From Candidatus Falkowbacteria bacterium (lineage in GTDB: Bacteria; Patescibacteriota; Patescibacteriia; Patescibacteriales; UBA12075), in assembly GCA_043801965.1 (NCBI GenBank), contig JAZDLN010000011.1, positions 44,511 to 108,510 on the forward strand: 64,000 nucleotides of DNA, given 5' to 3'. The notes beneath the pieces were generated by a model, which made no database searches, was not told the origin of the DNA, and was given only the letters and a program-made list of their open reading frames with translations. Position 1 is the first letter of the stretch. Each line of letters begins with the position of its first letter. Below, piece by piece: positions 1,618 to 49,155 of this stretch. The position numbers and the translations under genes were made by a program.

Positions 1618-1622
1618 AATTG

Positions 1623-1759
1623 TGGGCGACACAAGAGTTTCCGCCCGGGGCGGATCCGCCTTTGGCGGAGAACTTGTGACCCCCGCAAATCCCGAAGCGT
1701 CGGGACACGGGGCAAGCTCTACGATGTCAATCCCGAAGCGTCGGGACTCTAACCAAAAA
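1623..1759 (-). pseudogene. decayed 3'-partial copy of tRNA-Val interrupted by three GC-rich hairpin insertions
   Basis: Segments tgggcgacacaagagtt / aacttgtgacc / tctacgatgtcaa / tctaaccaa are collinear with the intact tRNA-Val at 1790-1863. They are separated by 30-, 36- and 17-nt GC hairpins. The 5' acceptor/D strand is missing. Confidence 0.6.
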
Positions 1760-1789
1760 TACCCCGCTTGAAAACAGGGTATTTTTCTG

Positions 1790-1863
<74 letters not shown>

Positions 1864-1905: not shown

Positions 1906-1926
1906 GTGCGCCCAGATGGACTTGAA
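1906..1926 (-). repeat. exact 21-nt duplicate of the 3' end of tRNA-Ile (att-like scar)
   Basis: gtgcgcccagatggacttgaa at 1906-1926 equals 2084-2104. Confidence 0.6.
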
Positions 1927-2084
1927 GGGGCGGAAGCCCCACAACATCATTATACTCGTTTTTCGAGCGAAACATGCTGAATGTTTACATTCATGCTTTT
2001 TCTGCTTCTGTGTCTTGCTCAAAATGGTTCAAATCTCTGAACACACAAAATTCTGACGGCTCTGCGGGAGCCGCCATAATTTTG

Positions 2085-2158
2085 TGCGCCCAGATGGACT
2101 TGAACCATCGACCCCAGGCTTATAAGGCCTGTGCTCTAACCAACTGAGCTATGGGCGC
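2085..2158 (-). tRNA. tRNA-Ile (anticodon UAU)
   Basis: Reverse complement GCGCCCATAGCTCAGTTGGTTAGAGCACAGGCCTTATAAGCCTGGGGTCGATGGTTCAAGTCCATCTGGGCGCA. Stems are perfect and the anticodon loop is CTTATAA. Confidence 0.85.
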
Positions 2159-2196: not shown

Positions 2197-2345
2197 TGCC
2201 TTTTGGACTTGCCCCGTCATCCGACGGGGCACCGGGCCGGATGACCCGGTGAACCATCGACCCCAGGCTTATGAGGCTTGTGCTCCCTGCCGGCAGGCGG
2301 GTAACCAACTGCCTGTCCCGCCAAAGCGAAGCGTCAACGGGGAGT
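2197..2345 (-). pseudogene. decayed CAU-anticodon paralog of the adjacent tRNA-Ile with three GC-rich insertions
   Basis: Core GAGCACAAGCCTCATAAGCCTGGGGTCGATGGTTC is near-identical to the tRNA-Ile(UAU) body. Insertions lie in the D region (30 and 17 nt) and T-loop (40 nt). The acceptor stem is no longer complementary. Confidence 0.55.
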
Positions 2346-2670
2346 TTATGGTTTCAAACTCTTAATCAATATAGCATAATTATCCTTTTTTTTCAAGAGT
2401 TAGGGTTTTTTAAAAAACAAGGCTATCGATTAATCCGAAATTTGTTCATGTTAATATTGACGAATAACTGCGGCGCCAACGGACTTTTTCCAGTCTTCTA
2501 AAATATCTTCTCTCTTTTGCCAGGCAAAATTCCGGAAAATATTTTAAAGTAGCTTCAACCCGAAGCCATGACGGCGGATTTTTGAAAAGCTGCATTATTA
2601 TTATACAAAAAATCCCTCAGATTTCAAGTGTCAAAGAATCCGAGGGATCAAGGTTCAAAAGTTCAAAAAA

Positions 2671-3315
2671 TTATAGCGCCAGTTGCGGGGCCACGAGACG
2701 AGGCCGGCGCACGGCGTTCCAGACGAGCGAGTTCTCAAGGCGAAGCACGTGGACATTGAGACGGCCGCCGGAATACAAGGCCACGTCGGCGACAAAAAAC
2801 TCTCCTTTGGATTGAAAGAAAAAGAATGTTCCGTATCCGTCGTCCCGAAGCCAATTACGGTGTTTCTTCACGGAGAGCTTGATCTGCGCCTGCGTGAAAC
2901 AAAGCCTCCGGATGTCCCCGTTGAGAGAACCGAACATATCCGCAAAAGTACCGTTTTTTACCATCTCATAAACGACAGCCTGCGTTTTGCCGGTTGCCGG
3001 TCCCGGTTCGTCCGCACCCCAGTTTTTAAAATCCGGGTCAATCCATGCGAACACATCGGTCGCATCCGCCAGAGTTTCGGTTCCATCGACTGCGTCAATG
3101 ATGAGTGTCTCGCCGCCGGAAACGAGCCTAAGAAAAGTTTCGCGGACCATGCTGATCCAACACTTTTCTTTGCGGAGAAACTTTTTTAATTCTCCCAGCC
3201 ACTCCCGGCCGCCTTCTCCTGATAATTTTTCCGCCAAATCGCAGATCGTTCCCAATGCTTCCATTGGGAGATCCACGATTTTCCGAACCACCGCACCGAG
3301 CATGTCTTTTGTCAT
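2671..3315 (-). CDS. hypothetical protein (GC-rich gene next to the tRNA cluster)
   Basis: 214-aa ORF. The many overlapping alternative-frame ORFs indicate locally high GC. No motif recognised. Confidence 0.55.
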   Translation of the reverse strand: MTKDMLGAVVRKIVDLPMEALGTICDLAEKLSGEGGREWLGELKKFLRKEKCWISMVRETFLRLVSGGETLIIDAVDGTETLADATDVFAWIDPDFKNWGADEPGPATGKTQAVVYEMVKNGTFADMFGSLNGDIRRLCFTQAQIKLSVKKHRNWLRDDGYGTFFFFQSKGEFFVADVALYSGGRLNVHVLRLENSLVWNAVRRPRLVAPQLAL

Positions 3316-6302: not shown

Positions 6303-6405
6303 TAAAGCGGCCAGGCAAGAAATTTTCGTCAGGAAAAACTTAGTTCTAGAACCGAATTTTTCCTAACAGAAAGATCCCCATGCTTGTCGTGCCTGTGCCG
6401 CTTTA
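6303..6405. other. ~100-nt rod-like nested palindrome (structured element of unknown role)
   Basis: Outer stem taaagcggccaggca / tgcctgtgccgcttta, middle stem aggaaaaa / tttttcct, apex gttctagaac. Confidence 0.35.
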
Positions 6406-6582
6406 ACCGGCCTTAATTTAGAAAATTCAAGTTAATATAACATCTTAGCACACCGCGGAAAAGTTGTCAAGACTAATATACTACCTTAAAAATATTTTAT
6501 TTAAAATTAGCAAAAAAATTTATATTATTTTTGCCTGTTTATAGACATCTAAAGTATAACAACGCTTTATTAATAAAAAATT

Positions 6583-20117: not shown

Positions 20118-20217
20118 CAAGCCCTCTGCCCCGGCTTACTTCGTTCGCCGACCCCTCTCCGGTACCGGAGAGGGGTGCCGAGCGCAAGCGAGGCGGGGAG
20201 AGGGTTTGTTTAGAAAA
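20118..20217. repeat. GC-rich ~100-nt palindromic element, copy 1 (GGAGAGGGG family)
   Basis: aagccctctgccccggcttacttcgttcgccgacccctctccggtaccggagaggggtgccgagcgcaagcgaggcggggagagggttt. Self-complementary about the ggtacc centre. Confidence 0.8.
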
Positions 20218-20222
20218 TAAAT

Positions 20223-20585
20223 TTATCTATCCATTTCTCTTCTTATTTTCCCTATTACCGCCTGAAGGTCATCTATAACTTCGGCATTGGTAAACCTCAT
20301 AATTCTATATCCCTGCCCGATAAAAAATTCTTGCCTAAATTCATCATACTCCTTGATTTCCTCTTTATTATGTATTCCTCCGTCAACCTCAATAATCAAT
20401 CTTTTGGAAAAACAACAAAAATCAACGATATACCGATAAGAGCCGAAACAAAACGGAACCTGTCGTTTGAATTTTACGTCTAAAAAATTATTTCTAACCC
20501 TTTGCCACAGTAATTTTTCCGCTGGTGTCATTTTCTTTCGTAAAATTTTTGCGATATCGTATATGTTGGTCGGATATTTATTCAT
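20223..20585 (-). CDS. DUF559 (Vsr/restriction-endonuclease-like fold) protein
   Basis: LRKKMTPAEKLLWQRVRN...FKRQVPFGSYRYIVDFCC...LIIEVDGGIH...D..R...F...GYRIMRFTNAEV, a typical DUF559 pattern. Confidence 0.8.
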   Translation of the reverse strand: MNKYPTNIYDIAKILRKKMTPAEKLLWQRVRNNFLDVKFKRQVPFCFGSYRYIVDFCCFSKRLIIEVDGGIHNKEEIKEYDEFRQEFFIGQGYRIMRFTNAEVIDDLQAVIGKIRREMDR

Positions 20586-20632
20586 ATGTTATTACGGGCA
20601 CGGCTTTCTCTCTAATCCTCCACTCGCCTTTC

Positions 20633-20732
20633 GAGCCCTCTCCCCCGGCTCTCTTCGTTCGCCGACCCCTCTCCCTGCCTACCGGTAGGCAGGCGGTACC
20701 GGAGAGGGGTGCCGAGCGCAAGCGAGGCGGGG
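20633..20732. repeat. GC-rich palindromic element, copy 2 (same orientation as copy 1, carries a nested insertion)
   Basis: Matches copy 1 arm for arm except for 20 extra nt at the apex. Confidence 0.8.
20675..20694. repeat. 20-nt mini-palindrome nested in the apex of copy 2
   Basis: ctgcctaccggtaggcag(gc). An 18-nt perfect palindrome inserted between ctcc and ggtacc, relative to copy 1. Confidence 0.75.
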
Positions 20733-20769
20733 AGAGGGTTTTGTTTAACCGGAGAGGGGGCAAGCGTCT

Positions 20770-28598: not shown

Positions 28599-28634
28599 CA
28601 ATGGCGTTTTTTTCGTAATTAAAACCAAAAATGT

Positions 28635-31702
<3,068 letters not shown>

Positions 31703-31867: not shown

Positions 31868-31975
31868 AGCTGGCAATTAACTACTAATAAAATTAGTTGT
31901 TAATTGTTAACTGTCAATTGTCCCGGCCAAAGGCCGATCCCTGCCTACCGGCAGGCAGGCGCCTTTGGCGGAAAA
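31868..31975. repeat. AT-rich CAATTAA-type palindrome followed by nested GC mini-hairpins
   Basis: ggcaattaactactaataaaattagttgttaattgttaactgtcaattg, then ggccaaaggcc...ctgcctaccggcaggcagg...gcctttggcgg. Confidence 0.6.
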
Positions 31976-36224: not shown

Positions 36225-36315
36225 TACCCTCTCCCCCGGCTCGCTGCGTTCGCCGACCCCTCTCCGGTACCGGAGAGGGGAGCCGAAGCGAAAGCGGGGG
36301 CAGGGAGAGGGTTTG
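36225..36315. repeat. GC-rich palindromic element, copy 3 (solo)
   Basis: ataccctctcccccggctcgctgcgttcgccgacccctctccggtaccggagaggggagccgaagcgaaagcgggggcagggagagggtttgt. Confidence 0.8.
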
Positions 36316-48700: not shown

Positions 48701-48705
48701 ATTTG

Positions 48706-48777
48706 TGCTCTCGGTTGGAATCGAACCAACATTACAAGTTCCGGAAACTTGCGTCCTATCCATTGAACGACGAGAGC
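48706..48777 (-). tRNA. tRNA-Arg (anticodon CCG)
   Basis: Reverse complement GCTCTCGTCGTTCAATGGATAGGACGCAAGTTTCCGGAACTTGTAATGTTGGTTCGATTCCAACCGAGAGCA. Anticodon loop TTCCGGA. Confidence 0.9.
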
Positions 48778-48791
48778 GTTTTTATCATTGT

Positions 48792-48892
48792 ACTTGCGTC
48801 CTACTTGCCCGCCGAAGTCCCGACGCTTCGGGACGCAGGTGGGTCCATTGTCCGCCAAAGGAGGATCAGCCTCTGGCTGAAACGACGAGAGC
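48792..48892 (-). pseudogene. tRNA-Arg 5'-half copy 1 (positions 1-31) with 30- and 40-nt hairpin insertions in the D arm
   Basis: acttgcgtccta[40 nt]tccattg[30 nt]aacgacgagagc is collinear with 48749-48777. Confidence 0.6.
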
Positions 48893-48912
48893 ATAAAATA
48901 TTATATTGTAAA

Positions 48913-49008
48913 TGCGTCCTACTTGCCCGCCGAAGTCCCGACGCTTCGGGACGCAGGCGGGTCCATTGTCCGTCAAAGGCGGGGAGCCTCTGGCTGAAAC
49001 GACGAGAG
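48913..49008 (-). pseudogene. tRNA-Arg 5'-half copy 2, tandem duplicate of copy 1
   Basis: Same architecture about 120 nt further on, with a few substitutions (ggtggg to ggcggg, gaggatcagcc to gcggggagcc). Confidence 0.6.
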
Positions 49009-49155
49009 TGTTGTTTATTTTTTTGCTTGCGCCCTGCCCGACCGCATAAAGGCGTAAAAAACGAATATGCTCCCATATTACATGTTTTGACGGAATTTGT
49101 CCAGTGTCGGAAATATGCTATAATAAGAATAATCTAAGTAAATTAAATAAAAAAT

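Follow-up and report, generated by a model that had tools for sequence, protein, structure and literature searches.

Why should a broken second copy of a tRNA gene stand beside an intact one, and why should GC-rich hairpins interrupt it in its loops? The question is raised by positions 1623-1759 of a 64,000-nucleotide (nt) stretch of contig JAZDLN010000011.1 (assembly GCA_043801965.1) of a Candidatus Falkowbacteria bacterium, the whole of which is called the window here. In this segment a decayed copy of tRNA-Val carries GC-rich inserts, one of which, a 30-nt module of two mini-hairpins (the twin), lies exactly between T-loop positions 56 and 57. An earlier note on this DNA proposed either that such hairpins target the loops of tRNA-shaped DNA or RNA, or that tRNA pseudogenes are permissive landing pads. 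The latter proposal has fared better, the copies being non-functional and lineage-specific and the same modules occurring also outside tRNA sequence. We consider it probable that the locus is a dead, 5'-truncated tandem duplicate of tRNA-Val, a permissive landing pad colonised by GC-rich palindromic selfish micro-elements that resemble REPINs and Rickettsia palindromic elements, the twin among them having the target TTY|RAA. In order from the intact gene downstream, the locus consists of the following parts.

1789-1863, minus strand: intact tRNA-Val(GAC), called by ARAGORN and by Rfam (RF00005, 66.8 bits).
1755-1787, minus strand: terminator-like hairpin with a T-run, directly 3' of tRNA-Val; inverted repeat with 15-nt arms, 87% complementary.
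1621-1756, minus strand: decayed tandem tRNA-Val copy, 5'-truncated, covering tRNA positions ~15-76 without 25-31 as exact collinear direct repeats; its parts are the next seven.
1747-1756, minus strand: block 4, 10/10 identical to 1839-1848; the 5' terminus of the copy, with the D loop and the first part of the 3' D stem (sense TTGGTTAGAG).
1731-1746: 16-nt hairpin TCCCGAAGCGTCGGGA in place of 7 nt of tRNA; the 5' anticodon stem is gone.
1717-1730, minus strand: block 3, 14/14 identical to 1818-1831; anticodon loop (GAC) and 3' anticodon stem.
1682-1716: nested hairpin insert, outer stem CCCCG..CGGGG, inner 16-nt hairpin TCCCGAAGCGTCGGGA at 1690-1705.
1670-1681, minus strand: block 2, 12/12 identical to 1807-1818; variable loop, 5' T stem and T-loop positions 54-56.
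1640-1669: twin mini-hairpin insert, TCCGCCcggGGCGGA + TCCGCCtttGGCGGA, between T-loop C56 and A57 (sense GTTC^AACT).
1621-1639, minus strand: block 1, 19/19 identical to 1788-1806; 3' flank, discriminator, 3' acceptor strand, 3' T stem and T-loop positions 57-60.
1589-1617: bidirectional terminator hairpin with a 12-bp perfect stem, which closes the locus and adjoins the DHH gene.

The copy is made up of four exact collinear blocks (19, 12, 14 and 10 nt, 55 nt in total) split by three GC-rich inserts, for all of which the intact tRNA-Val(GAC) provides the 'empty site' reference. Much of what had been described from the letters alone is borne out: a second tRNA-Val copy does lie about 30 nt downstream with its blocks split by inserts, the T-loop insert does consist of 30 nt that fold as a pair of 15-nt hairpins (stem 6 bp, loop 3 nt) exactly between positions 56 and 57, and the nested hairpin given as 36 nt measures 35-36 nt, one C being of ambiguous assignment. 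The count of three insertions needs correction, as those at 1640-1669 and 1682-1716 are true inserts, whereas the third (1731-1746) replaces 7 nt (sense CGCTACG) in which the D stem ends and which further comprise position 26 and all of the 5' anticodon stem. A 19-nt direct repeat (1688-1706 = 1729-1747) lies within the copy, which begins at about tRNA position 15, so that the 5' acceptor and 5' D-stem strands (positions 1-14) are missing. In shuffled versions of the window 0.00 matches to the twin pattern (with up to three mismatches) and 0.07 strand-matches to the 16-nt hairpin are expected, against 2 and 9 found; folded as single-stranded DNA, the segment of the Val copy has z = -4.1.

The tRNA genes of the window are three, all on the minus strand, Val(GAC), Ile(TAT) and Arg(CCG) (ARAGORN, Rfam), and neither program calls a tRNA at 1621-1759, 2197-2350 or 48792-49009. 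When the inserts are removed from the Val copy, no cloverleaf results, positions 1-14 and the 5' anticodon stem being still absent. Segment 1621-1756 combines collinear identity to the neighbouring gene with a disabling 5' truncation and a 7-nt replacement, as a tRNA pseudogene does. The terminator-like hairpin at 1755-1787 fills the gap of about 30 nt between the intact gene and the decayed copy; a strict terminator scan made no call at this place, where the T-run was read from the sequence. The Val copy is a non-functional partial tandem duplicate of the adjacent tRNA-Val and not an interrupted functional tRNA, since no tRNA is called in it, strands are missing, a terminator-like hairpin stands in front, the intact gene lies alongside and relatives live without the copy.

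The T-loop insert belongs to a 30-bp family, [TCNGCC-NNA-GGCNGA][TCNGCC-TNN-GGCNGA], in which two 15-nt units are joined in inverted orientation, the single-stranded hairpin unit being TCCGCCNNAGGCGGA. A scan with the pattern TCNGCCNNNGGCNGATCNGCCNNNGGCNGA (20 specified bases) over one genome per species, about 6x10^11 nt, gave at least 120 genome-contig matches, where about one is expected by our own estimate. The statistics on the twin given hereafter (123-141 copies; 876 kb around 125 copies) refer to the matches listed, on at least 120 contigs, with hosts assigned by record title. The hosts include many members of the candidate phyla radiation (CPR), among them Kaiser-, Lipton-, Doudna-, Moran-, Giovannoni-, Falkow-, Saccharibacteria and others, as well as metagenome-assembled genomes (MAGs) of Ignavibacteria, Kiritimatiellae, Omnitrophota, Lentisphaerae, Planctomycetales, Elusimicrobia, Binatia, Chloroflexota, Bdellovibrionales and 'uncultured Gammaproteobacteria'; the twin is also found on 16 viral contigs. 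Some of the contigs are long (0.4-1.6 Mb), and the matches come from many unrelated projects. The few matches in high-GC actinomycetes look like chance.

[quoted passage not shown] Loop 1 has the form NNA, with A in 112/123 listed copies, and loop 2 the form TNN, with T in 113/123; loop variation consists mostly of transitions. At the free stem positions 3/13 and 18/28, Watson-Crick pairs are found in 132/141 copies against 71-78 expected, while the cross-hairpin pairs 3/28 and 13/18 are not in excess. Covariation within each mini-hairpin, and its absence across the 30-mer, mark the two 15-nt hairpins as the structural units. For the same reason a 30-bp duplex palindrome, such as a dimeric binding site or a recombination site, was rejected, the more so as the two loops are exactly complementary in only 18 of the 123 copies. 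A role as bidirectional terminator fails on polarity, a T-run preceding and an A-run following the hairpins. In the 876 kb around the listed copies the twin occurs 125 times as a doublet, 21 times as a singlet and never as a triplet.

What the insertion sites have in common is a short sequence. T stands at -2 in 100/123 sites and A at +2 in 90/123; TT..AA is present at 30% of the sites against 0.9% in the background, a 33-fold enrichment, and the preferences of the two flanks are independent, their joint frequency of 62% being close to the product of T(-2) at 81% and A(+2) at 73%. Where tRNA paralogues provide the empty site (Val and Arg in the window, L113, L112, L107 and L103), exactly 30 nt have been gained and zero bases duplicated, so that the target-site duplication of MITEs is lacking; no parent insertion sequence with matching ends was seen in the window, and no collection-wide search for one was made. 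Sites of the type TTY|RAA are present in every bacterial T loop (GTTC|RAA), in the anticodon loop of tRNA-Ser(UGA) (CTTG|AAA) and in the D arm of tRNA-Arg (GTT|CAA), and independent tRNA copies share their T-loop insertion point because the T loop contains the target. Beyond the hexamer, the flanks of the twin are no more self-complementary than 3,145 control TTY|RAA sites (p = 0.30), and targeting of hairpin loops as structures by the twin was rejected on this basis. The 'loop' preference of the twin is a preference for the hexamer TTY|RAA, and the idea that tRNA-shaped loops are the target is not supported for it, its sites sharing a sequence and its flanks not being hairpin-like. The search for the module proposed earlier, with a table of its contexts, thus returns this target preference together with sites in intergenic DNA, coding sequence and spare tRNAs.

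Besides tRNA copies, the settings of the twin are the intergenic DNA of many phyla, protein-coding genes and one further site in the window (31921-31972). Of the 125 twins, 7 are at most 100 nt away from an intact tRNA gene (5.6% against 1.3% expected) and 16 at most 335 nt (12.8% against 3.6%); about 7% of the listed twins are in tRNA-derived sequence, and 0.48% of the target hexamers are in intact tRNA genes. Most of the excess near tRNA genes is expected if elements survive mainly in non-coding DNA, of which spare tRNA fragments make up a sizeable share in compact genomes. When the 30-nt insert was removed and ARAGORN rerun, a complete tRNA across the junction was obtained for 1 of the 125 copies (L086), and what is restored there is an extra tRNA-Ser(GGA) that has an intact one next to it. 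Insertion into a functional single-copy tRNA gene would be lethal, and hence only redundant tRNA copies keep insertions.

Protein genes carry the twin as well. Inside long stop-free open reading frames (ORFs) are 35/125 listed twins (28%), 25 of the 35 in the frame that reads SAxGGSAxGG, typically between Phe and Lys or Glu codons (F|K, F|E), which amounts to the target TTY|RAA. The host genes encode PheT, DnaE, HsdR, Mfd, ArsA, UvrB, DnaG and AspRS. In an alignment with Thermus AspRS (6hhv), an exact 10-residue gap stands opposite SAKGGSASGG; in that of UvrB (L051) the region is variable, with no clean gap. Mfd, the twin-bearing form of which is found on 12 contigs, gives the fullest record: among 19 Giovannonibacteria-type orthologues SAKGGSASGG stands between LPKN and K only in P0241 and is absent from the other 18, a second and older insert, SAIGGSASSG after KEKF, is restricted to P0241 and P0245, and P0252 alone has an insert at a third site, NF|SAKGGPASGW|KNLG. 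The Mfd inserts are repeated, independent and precise insertions of 10 residues, at least three in number and at different F|K sites. P0245 and P0256 have an apparent half-deleted remnant, ILSASGWKNLG. Read as Ser-Ala-x-Gly-Gly-Ser-Ala-x-Gly-Gly, the twin would be tolerated by proteins in their surface loops.

The other two inserts of the Val copy belong to a second widespread hairpin family, with the 18-nt core GTCCCGAAGCGTCGGGAC. This core was matched on at least 120 metagenome contigs and, among the matches listed, it usually forms the tip of a longer palindrome, tRNAs being close by in occasional cases only; a preference of the nested-hairpin families for palindrome tips may exist. Hairpin-laden partial tRNA copies with the second family were found in L159 (T loop), L189 (D loop) and L215, where a partial tRNA-Arg(UCU) copy has nested-family inserts at the same two D-loop sites as the tRNA-Arg copies of the window; outer hairpins of the type 'CTTGCCC(C/G)...' also occur outside tRNA contexts. 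A ValRS ORF (L276) contains, at 329-358, a 30-nt hairpin that belongs to the 'CTTGCCCGCC...GGCGGG' nested family; its translation, PASAKATAGK, falls in a variable loop, and comparison with relatives shows no clean 10-residue gap.

Several side observations concern this family. The 18-nt hairpin is often found inside a larger palindrome whose right arm ends in '...gaatgacaa' (L137, L138, L150, L161, L163 and L180; also L195, L203, L205, L217, L232, L241 and others), which seems to be another widespread repeat family of environmental genomes. Four paralogous short ORFs beginning MKKQ or MKKP (L142 at 6228, 6836 and 7565; L213 at 2383) have the hairpin in-frame at the same position, followed by GLNLxKRTISNL-like sequence, and may represent a small-peptide gene family amplified after gaining the hairpin.

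Further tRNA copies and hairpin-bearing sites of the window are the following.

2084-2158, minus strand: intact tRNA-Ile(TAT), called by ARAGORN and by Rfam (76.6 bits).
~2197-2350, minus strand: Ile-like tRNA pseudogene with anticodon CAT, containing a 36-nt repeat 94% identical to the intact tRNA-Ile.
1906-1926, minus strand: copy of the tRNA-Ile 3' end, from T loop to 3' flank, 21 nt at 100% identity, followed by the GC hairpin GGGGCGGAAGCCCC.
48705-48777, minus strand: intact tRNA-Arg(CCG), called by ARAGORN and Rfam.
48792-48892, minus strand: 5'-partial tRNA-Arg copy A, with a 41-nt nested hairpin at 48804-48844 (core GTCCCGACGCTTCGGGAC) and a twin at 48851-48880.
48913-49009, minus strand: 5'-partial tRNA-Arg copy B, the tandem partner of copy A, with a nested hairpin at 48922-48962 and a decayed twin at 48969-48997.
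31921-31972: twin-like module in the AT-rich spacer upstream of 23S rRNA, flanks ttg|aaa; a non-tRNA site.
29358-29375, 29753-29770, ~30984-30999 and 31453-31468: CCGAGCAAUCGG hairpins of 23S rRNA.

The Ile-like pseudogene has, as described earlier, a 40-nt insert at the T-loop site that is also occupied in the Val copy (2211-2250, two hairpins, with a 1-nt ambiguity), and in addition D-loop inserts at 2286-2301 and 2312-2342. Its anticodon CAT, against TAT in the live gene, suggests a switch from CAU to UAU in AUA decoding; the TAT (UAU) anticodon is also used by relatives at 74-81% identity (L276, L277 and L278). The spacer 1927-2083 parts the intact tRNA-Ile from its 21-nt 3'-end repeat and contains 12 nt of the tRNA-Ile T arm in inverted form (ATGGTTCAAATC, 2024-2035 against 2097-2108), which are kept in the sister strain. 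Both tRNA-Arg copies, which lie upstream of tRNA-Arg and are missing from the earlier note, have the twin in the D arm at GTT|CAATGG; the core GTCCCGACGCTTCGGGAC of their nested hairpin is the hairpin of the Val copy, turned round with respect to the tRNA sense strand.

Nesting extends to other hairpins of the window. The mini-hairpin CCTGCCTACCGGCAGGCAGG (31940-31959) is nested within the twin-like module 31921-31972, and nested hairpins are also seen in a family of GC-rich palindromes of about 85-115 nt. Two copies of this family (20118-20212 and 20630-20745) flank an ORF for a DUF559 protein, a Vsr-like endonuclease (20223-20585, minus strand; Pfam E = 1e-31), one of them with CCTGCCTACCGGTAGGCAGG nested centrally, and a third copy stands alone at 36228-36312. 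The 23S rRNA (28634-31701, minus strand) has four CCGAGCAAUCGG hairpins with a GCAA tetraloop and the same stem as the hairpin of the tRNA copies. That they are insertions of these elements was ruled out by the Rfam alignment, as they cap shortened native helices, at least two of them standing in place of longer native ones and being 10 and 17 nt shorter than the model. The same rRNA has large insertions near model positions ~282 (~65 nt) and ~314 (~30 nt).

How the copies come and go can be followed in related genomes. The DHH phosphoesterase gene adjoining the locus (436-1578) encodes a protein 100% identical to one from a Falkowbacteria MAG and 96% identical to the RIFOXYB2_FULL_47_14 homologue, and the sister strain was located via the DHH protein P0002, 96% identical to that of the window; the sister species locus was recovered in at least seven independent assemblies (NCBI, ENA, JGI and Logan). 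In the sister strain the Val copy carries the twin, 29/30 identical (loop CGA against CGG in the window), and different hairpins occupy the other two insert sites, the inner hairpin at the site of 1682-1716 being GCCGCtgacGCGGC. Between window and sister, blocks 1-3 are identical at 45/45 positions (block 1 at 19/19), insert 2 at 22/35, insert 3 at 9/30, the spacers at 55-69% and third codon positions of DHH at 78%. In some sister strains a 181-nt unit, terminator included, is present twice in tandem, in the others once, and this variation in copy number points to unequal crossing-over. In sister assembly L002 a run of N (6397-6495) falls exactly inside the second tandem Val copy, an indication that such repeats break or scaffold assemblies.

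The sister strain is without the Ile-like copy and without the 5' Arg copies, and at its Arg locus it has a 3' partial copy instead, with a hairpin in the T loop. L275 (86% NUDIX identity) carries a single 5' Arg copy, in which the 41-nt nested hairpin is identical to that of the window, and, at CCATTG|AAC, the site of the twin in the window, a different insert; in each of the two lineages the 5' Arg copy matches the acceptor stem of its own gene (gagagc in the window, gggtgc in L275). In relatives whose DHH identity is 81%, 74% and 75%, tRNA-Val and tRNA-Ile(TAT) are clean and copies number zero, and the comparison of related genomes that had been suggested separates genomes with the copy from those lacking it. 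On this evidence the tRNA copies are lineage-specific and unstable in number, with hairpins that turn over fast, and the tRNA-derived blocks may be kept identical to the live gene by gene conversion or by unequal crossing-over in the tandem array. The ORF at 2671-3315 (minus strand, 214 amino acids), which lies beside the Ile-like pseudogene and has no Pfam or PHROG match, is absent from the sister strain L001 together with that pseudogene and about 1.3 kb of surrounding DNA, and the region may be a strain-specific insertion.

For the mechanism we suggest that the twin would insert as exactly 30 bp, blunt and without target duplication, at a symmetric TTY|RAA, and that the elements would be copied in trans by an enzyme (HUH/RAYT-like or other) to which the two mini-hairpins, in single-stranded form, serve as the recognition signal; a second hairpin placed at the tips of longer palindromes would give nested hairpins with quick turnover. 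Several points weigh against this account. A phmmer search with the TnpA of IS200/IS608 gave zero matches in the window or in the 876 kb around 125 twins; it covered the window and 120 twin loci rather than whole genomes, and a RAYT-type enzyme would act in trans. Mobility is deduced from presence and absence in orthologues of at most 77% identity and from the empty sites of paralogues, and insertion polymorphism between near-identical strains was not found. The sample of twins is biased, and the conservation of stems in the genome scan is in part imposed by the search pattern. The excess near tRNA genes could mean that the elements truly favour tRNA DNA, or that some mechanism makes the copies, and gene conversion is not fully convincing for the Arg acceptor block, which at 12 nt is short for it, independent duplications or selection being the alternatives. 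As candidate mobilisers, a nearby Y1/HUH transposase and a DUF559 nuclease were tried and dropped, phmmer having found neither near twin copies.

A wider proposal goes further than the landing pad, and we offer it tentatively, as quite possible: the twin would represent a cross-phylum class of ultra-small (30-bp) mobile DNA that moves as two independent single-stranded hairpins by way of a widely shared enzyme and routinely enters essential genes in-frame, partial tRNA copies being either its preferred refuges or generated or retained because of it, for instance as decoys.

Of the other explanations, the one that concerns the origin of the copies more than the identity of the inserts takes the partial copies as footprints of mobile elements that target tRNA genes (integrase attachment sites or GIY-YIG cassettes), with the hairpins as secondary passengers. 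Small GIY-YIG ORFs do have an intact tRNA-Ser on one side and a partial or interrupted copy of it on the other in L062 (7385-7835), L086 (6115-6620) and L103 (3326-3969), and they adjoin tRNA copies in L029 and L031, a twin being within 20-80 nt of the ORF boundary; these loci suggest homing-type cassettes that duplicate part of their tRNA target and are one source of copies. T4 SegB, a homing endonuclease of the GIY-YIG type, is active in a cluster of tRNA genes (PMC2330249). In the window, the 21-nt exact repeat of the tRNA-Ile 3' end (1906-1926) is typical of attachment-site duplication, and the Ile-like copy adjoins the ORF missing from the sister strain. Near the Val, Ile and Arg loci of the window, however, there is no integrase or GIY-YIG gene; the copy number varies as a 181-nt tandem unit, and the ~30 nt (the terminator) between the Val copy and the live gene leave no cargo at that locus. 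As an account of the window we regard this origin as unlikely, though by no means negligible. It is improbable that the elements recognise tRNA-shaped nucleic acid, be it cruciform or single-stranded loops of tRNA DNA or tRNA itself, and preferentially target spare copies. Such recognition would fit insertions that all fall in loops of the tRNA copies (T loop in Val and Ile here and in L113, L112, L107, L108 and L159; anticodon loop in L103 and L062; D loop in Arg here and in L029, L086, L189 and L215), the 3.6-4.3x enrichment of twins near tRNA genes, an excess of about 15x in tRNA-derived sequence relative to target hexamers within intact tRNA genes, the same nested family at the same two D-loop sites of tRNA-Arg CCG (window) and UCU (L215), and the nesting of hairpins in the loops of other hairpins. 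Yet about 90% of the listed twins lie outside tRNA-like DNA, the nested family too has members outside tRNA contexts, and the feature common to the sites is TTY|RAA, which tRNA loops contain, with flanks no more self-complementary than controls; hits confined to loops are to be expected anyway, tRNA stems being GC-rich and without the target.

Selection might instead keep the hairpin-laden fragments for a function, as leaders or trailers in processing and stability or as decoys that protect the essential gene. The conservation of blocks 1-3 and of the twin against the diverged spacers and third codon positions, the location of the 5' Arg copies between promoter region and mature tRNA, the covariation of their acceptor arm with the live gene across lineages and the recurrence of such copies in many compact genomes all speak for it, but the Val and Ile copies are absent at 74-81% identity, the sister does without the 5' Arg and Ile-like copies and has two of the three Val inserts swapped for unrelated hairpins, the Val copy sits behind a terminator-like hairpin, and the hairpin core is found in opposite orientations to the tRNA sense strand in Val and Arg copies; taken together, this makes a function very improbable. 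An interrupted yet functional tRNA gene, its inserts removed like introns, has practically no standing: loop-bound inserts and perfectly conserved blocks would suit it, whereas the parts missing after removal of the inserts, the lack of a call by ARAGORN or Rfam, the intact tRNA-Val(GAC) 30 nt away and the relatives that lack the copy do not. Next to no weight can be given either to chance or low-complexity matches, which had been named in advance as fatal to a tRNA origin, or to assembly artefacts. Palindromic artefacts are possible in MAG assemblies and several twin matches lie at contig ends, against which stand 55 nt of exact collinear identity, the 0.00 twin matches expected by chance, a locus recovered in seven or more independent assemblies, the 12 contigs with the twin-bearing Mfd, and long contigs from unrelated projects.

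With the landing pad as the preferred reading, the coincidence at the T loop of the Val locus comes down to a six-base target motif, and the locus itself is an ordinary, permissive pseudogene. If truly mobile, the twin would be among the smallest mobile DNA units known, and an unusual one for its nearly unchanged 30 bp across viral contigs and many phyla of bacteria, mostly uncultivated, the lack of target duplication and its frequent survival in essential genes, where it forms a 10-residue Ser/Ala/Gly linker. In practice, 30-nt inserts and hairpin-laden tRNA fragments will mislead tRNA and gene callers and break assemblies, and recurrent 'SAxGGSAxGG' indels are to be expected in alignments of CPR proteins. 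The twin also provides a natural marker of insertion events in unculturable lineages, and it makes testable the question of which enzyme moves a 30-bp palindrome. Literature searches by sequence, by peptide and by description found no account of the twin element, which is not proof of novelty; Elhai and co-workers reportedly described, in 2008, very small dispersed repeats of cyanobacteria.

Several known systems invite comparison. The archaeal multi-intron and split tRNAs, to which the earlier note had drawn an analogy, share with the Val copy the interruption of tRNA-coding blocks by extra sequence; they differ in that the copy lacks parts of the cloverleaf, has an intact gene alongside and belongs to a bacterial (CPR) host, and the analogy breaks down where removal of the inserts restores no tRNA. 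As to bacterial tRNA genes with multiple inserts, literature searches turned up none, in keeping with the earlier statement that they are not a described class. Attachment sites and GIY-YIG cassettes resemble the present loci in having partial tRNA copies beside an intact gene, the tRNA-Ser duplicates that flank GIY-YIG in L062, L086 and L103 being the nearest case, but at the loci of the window there is no integrase, endonuclease or cargo, and the Val copy is a tandem repeat unit; a repeat of the tRNA 3' end is present as in an integrase remnant, with only a 30-nt terminator between the repeats and no integrase ORF. The IS200/IS605-derived PATE and other single-strand HUH systems have hairpin ends, no target duplication and a short adjacent target, and insertion of the IS608 type needs a target on one side only. 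The twin resembles them in that structure rather than sequence is conserved at its free stem positions; by contrast, its target is symmetric with both flanks preferred, which is not the one-sided target of these systems, it is far shorter than the known minimal ends, and no TnpA is found near the listed twins.

Closer in appearance are the GC clusters of yeast mitochondria, GC-rich palindromic modules, some tens of bp long, in AT-rich spacers with variation concentrated in loops, which undergo merger, nesting and shuffling and take different forms at the same homologous site between strains (PMC4478555); double-hairpin elements of Allomyces are known to us through the citation in the same article (Paquin et al., 2000, as cited in PMC4478555). 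The turnover and nesting of hairpins in the tRNA copies match such module shuffling, although the GC clusters and double-hairpin elements are organellar and their sequences unrelated to the twin. Rickettsia palindromic elements (RPEs), of ~100-150 bp and in families RPE-1 to RPE-10, are found in Rickettsia only (PMC10969869). Like the twin, they are palindromic selfish DNA that sits in-frame in unrelated housekeeping genes as well as in non-coding DNA and is tolerated as an extra peptide; the twin differs in its 30 bp (10 residues, rich in Ser, Ala and Gly), its cross-phylum distribution and its defined target TTY|RAA. The REP/REPIN sequences of Proteobacteria are mobilised by RAYT (TnpA-REP) HUH transposases (PMC3116915). 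They are likewise short imperfect palindromes, with the inverted doublet prevailing in the twin (125 doublets, 21 singlets and 0 triplets), and are comparable in the twin's lack of coding capacity and of target duplication and in its hairpin conserved by covariation. Unlike them, the twin has 30 bp, no spacer between the units and no GTAG-type 5' tetranucleotide; it is not restricted to extragenic DNA (28% in ORFs), has nearly the same sequence across phyla rather than being species-specific, and shows no Y1/RAYT gene nearby (876 kb around the listed copies). The twin is set apart from REPINs, RPEs and GC clusters by its 30-bp size, the absence of target duplication, a symmetric six-base target and conservation across phyla.

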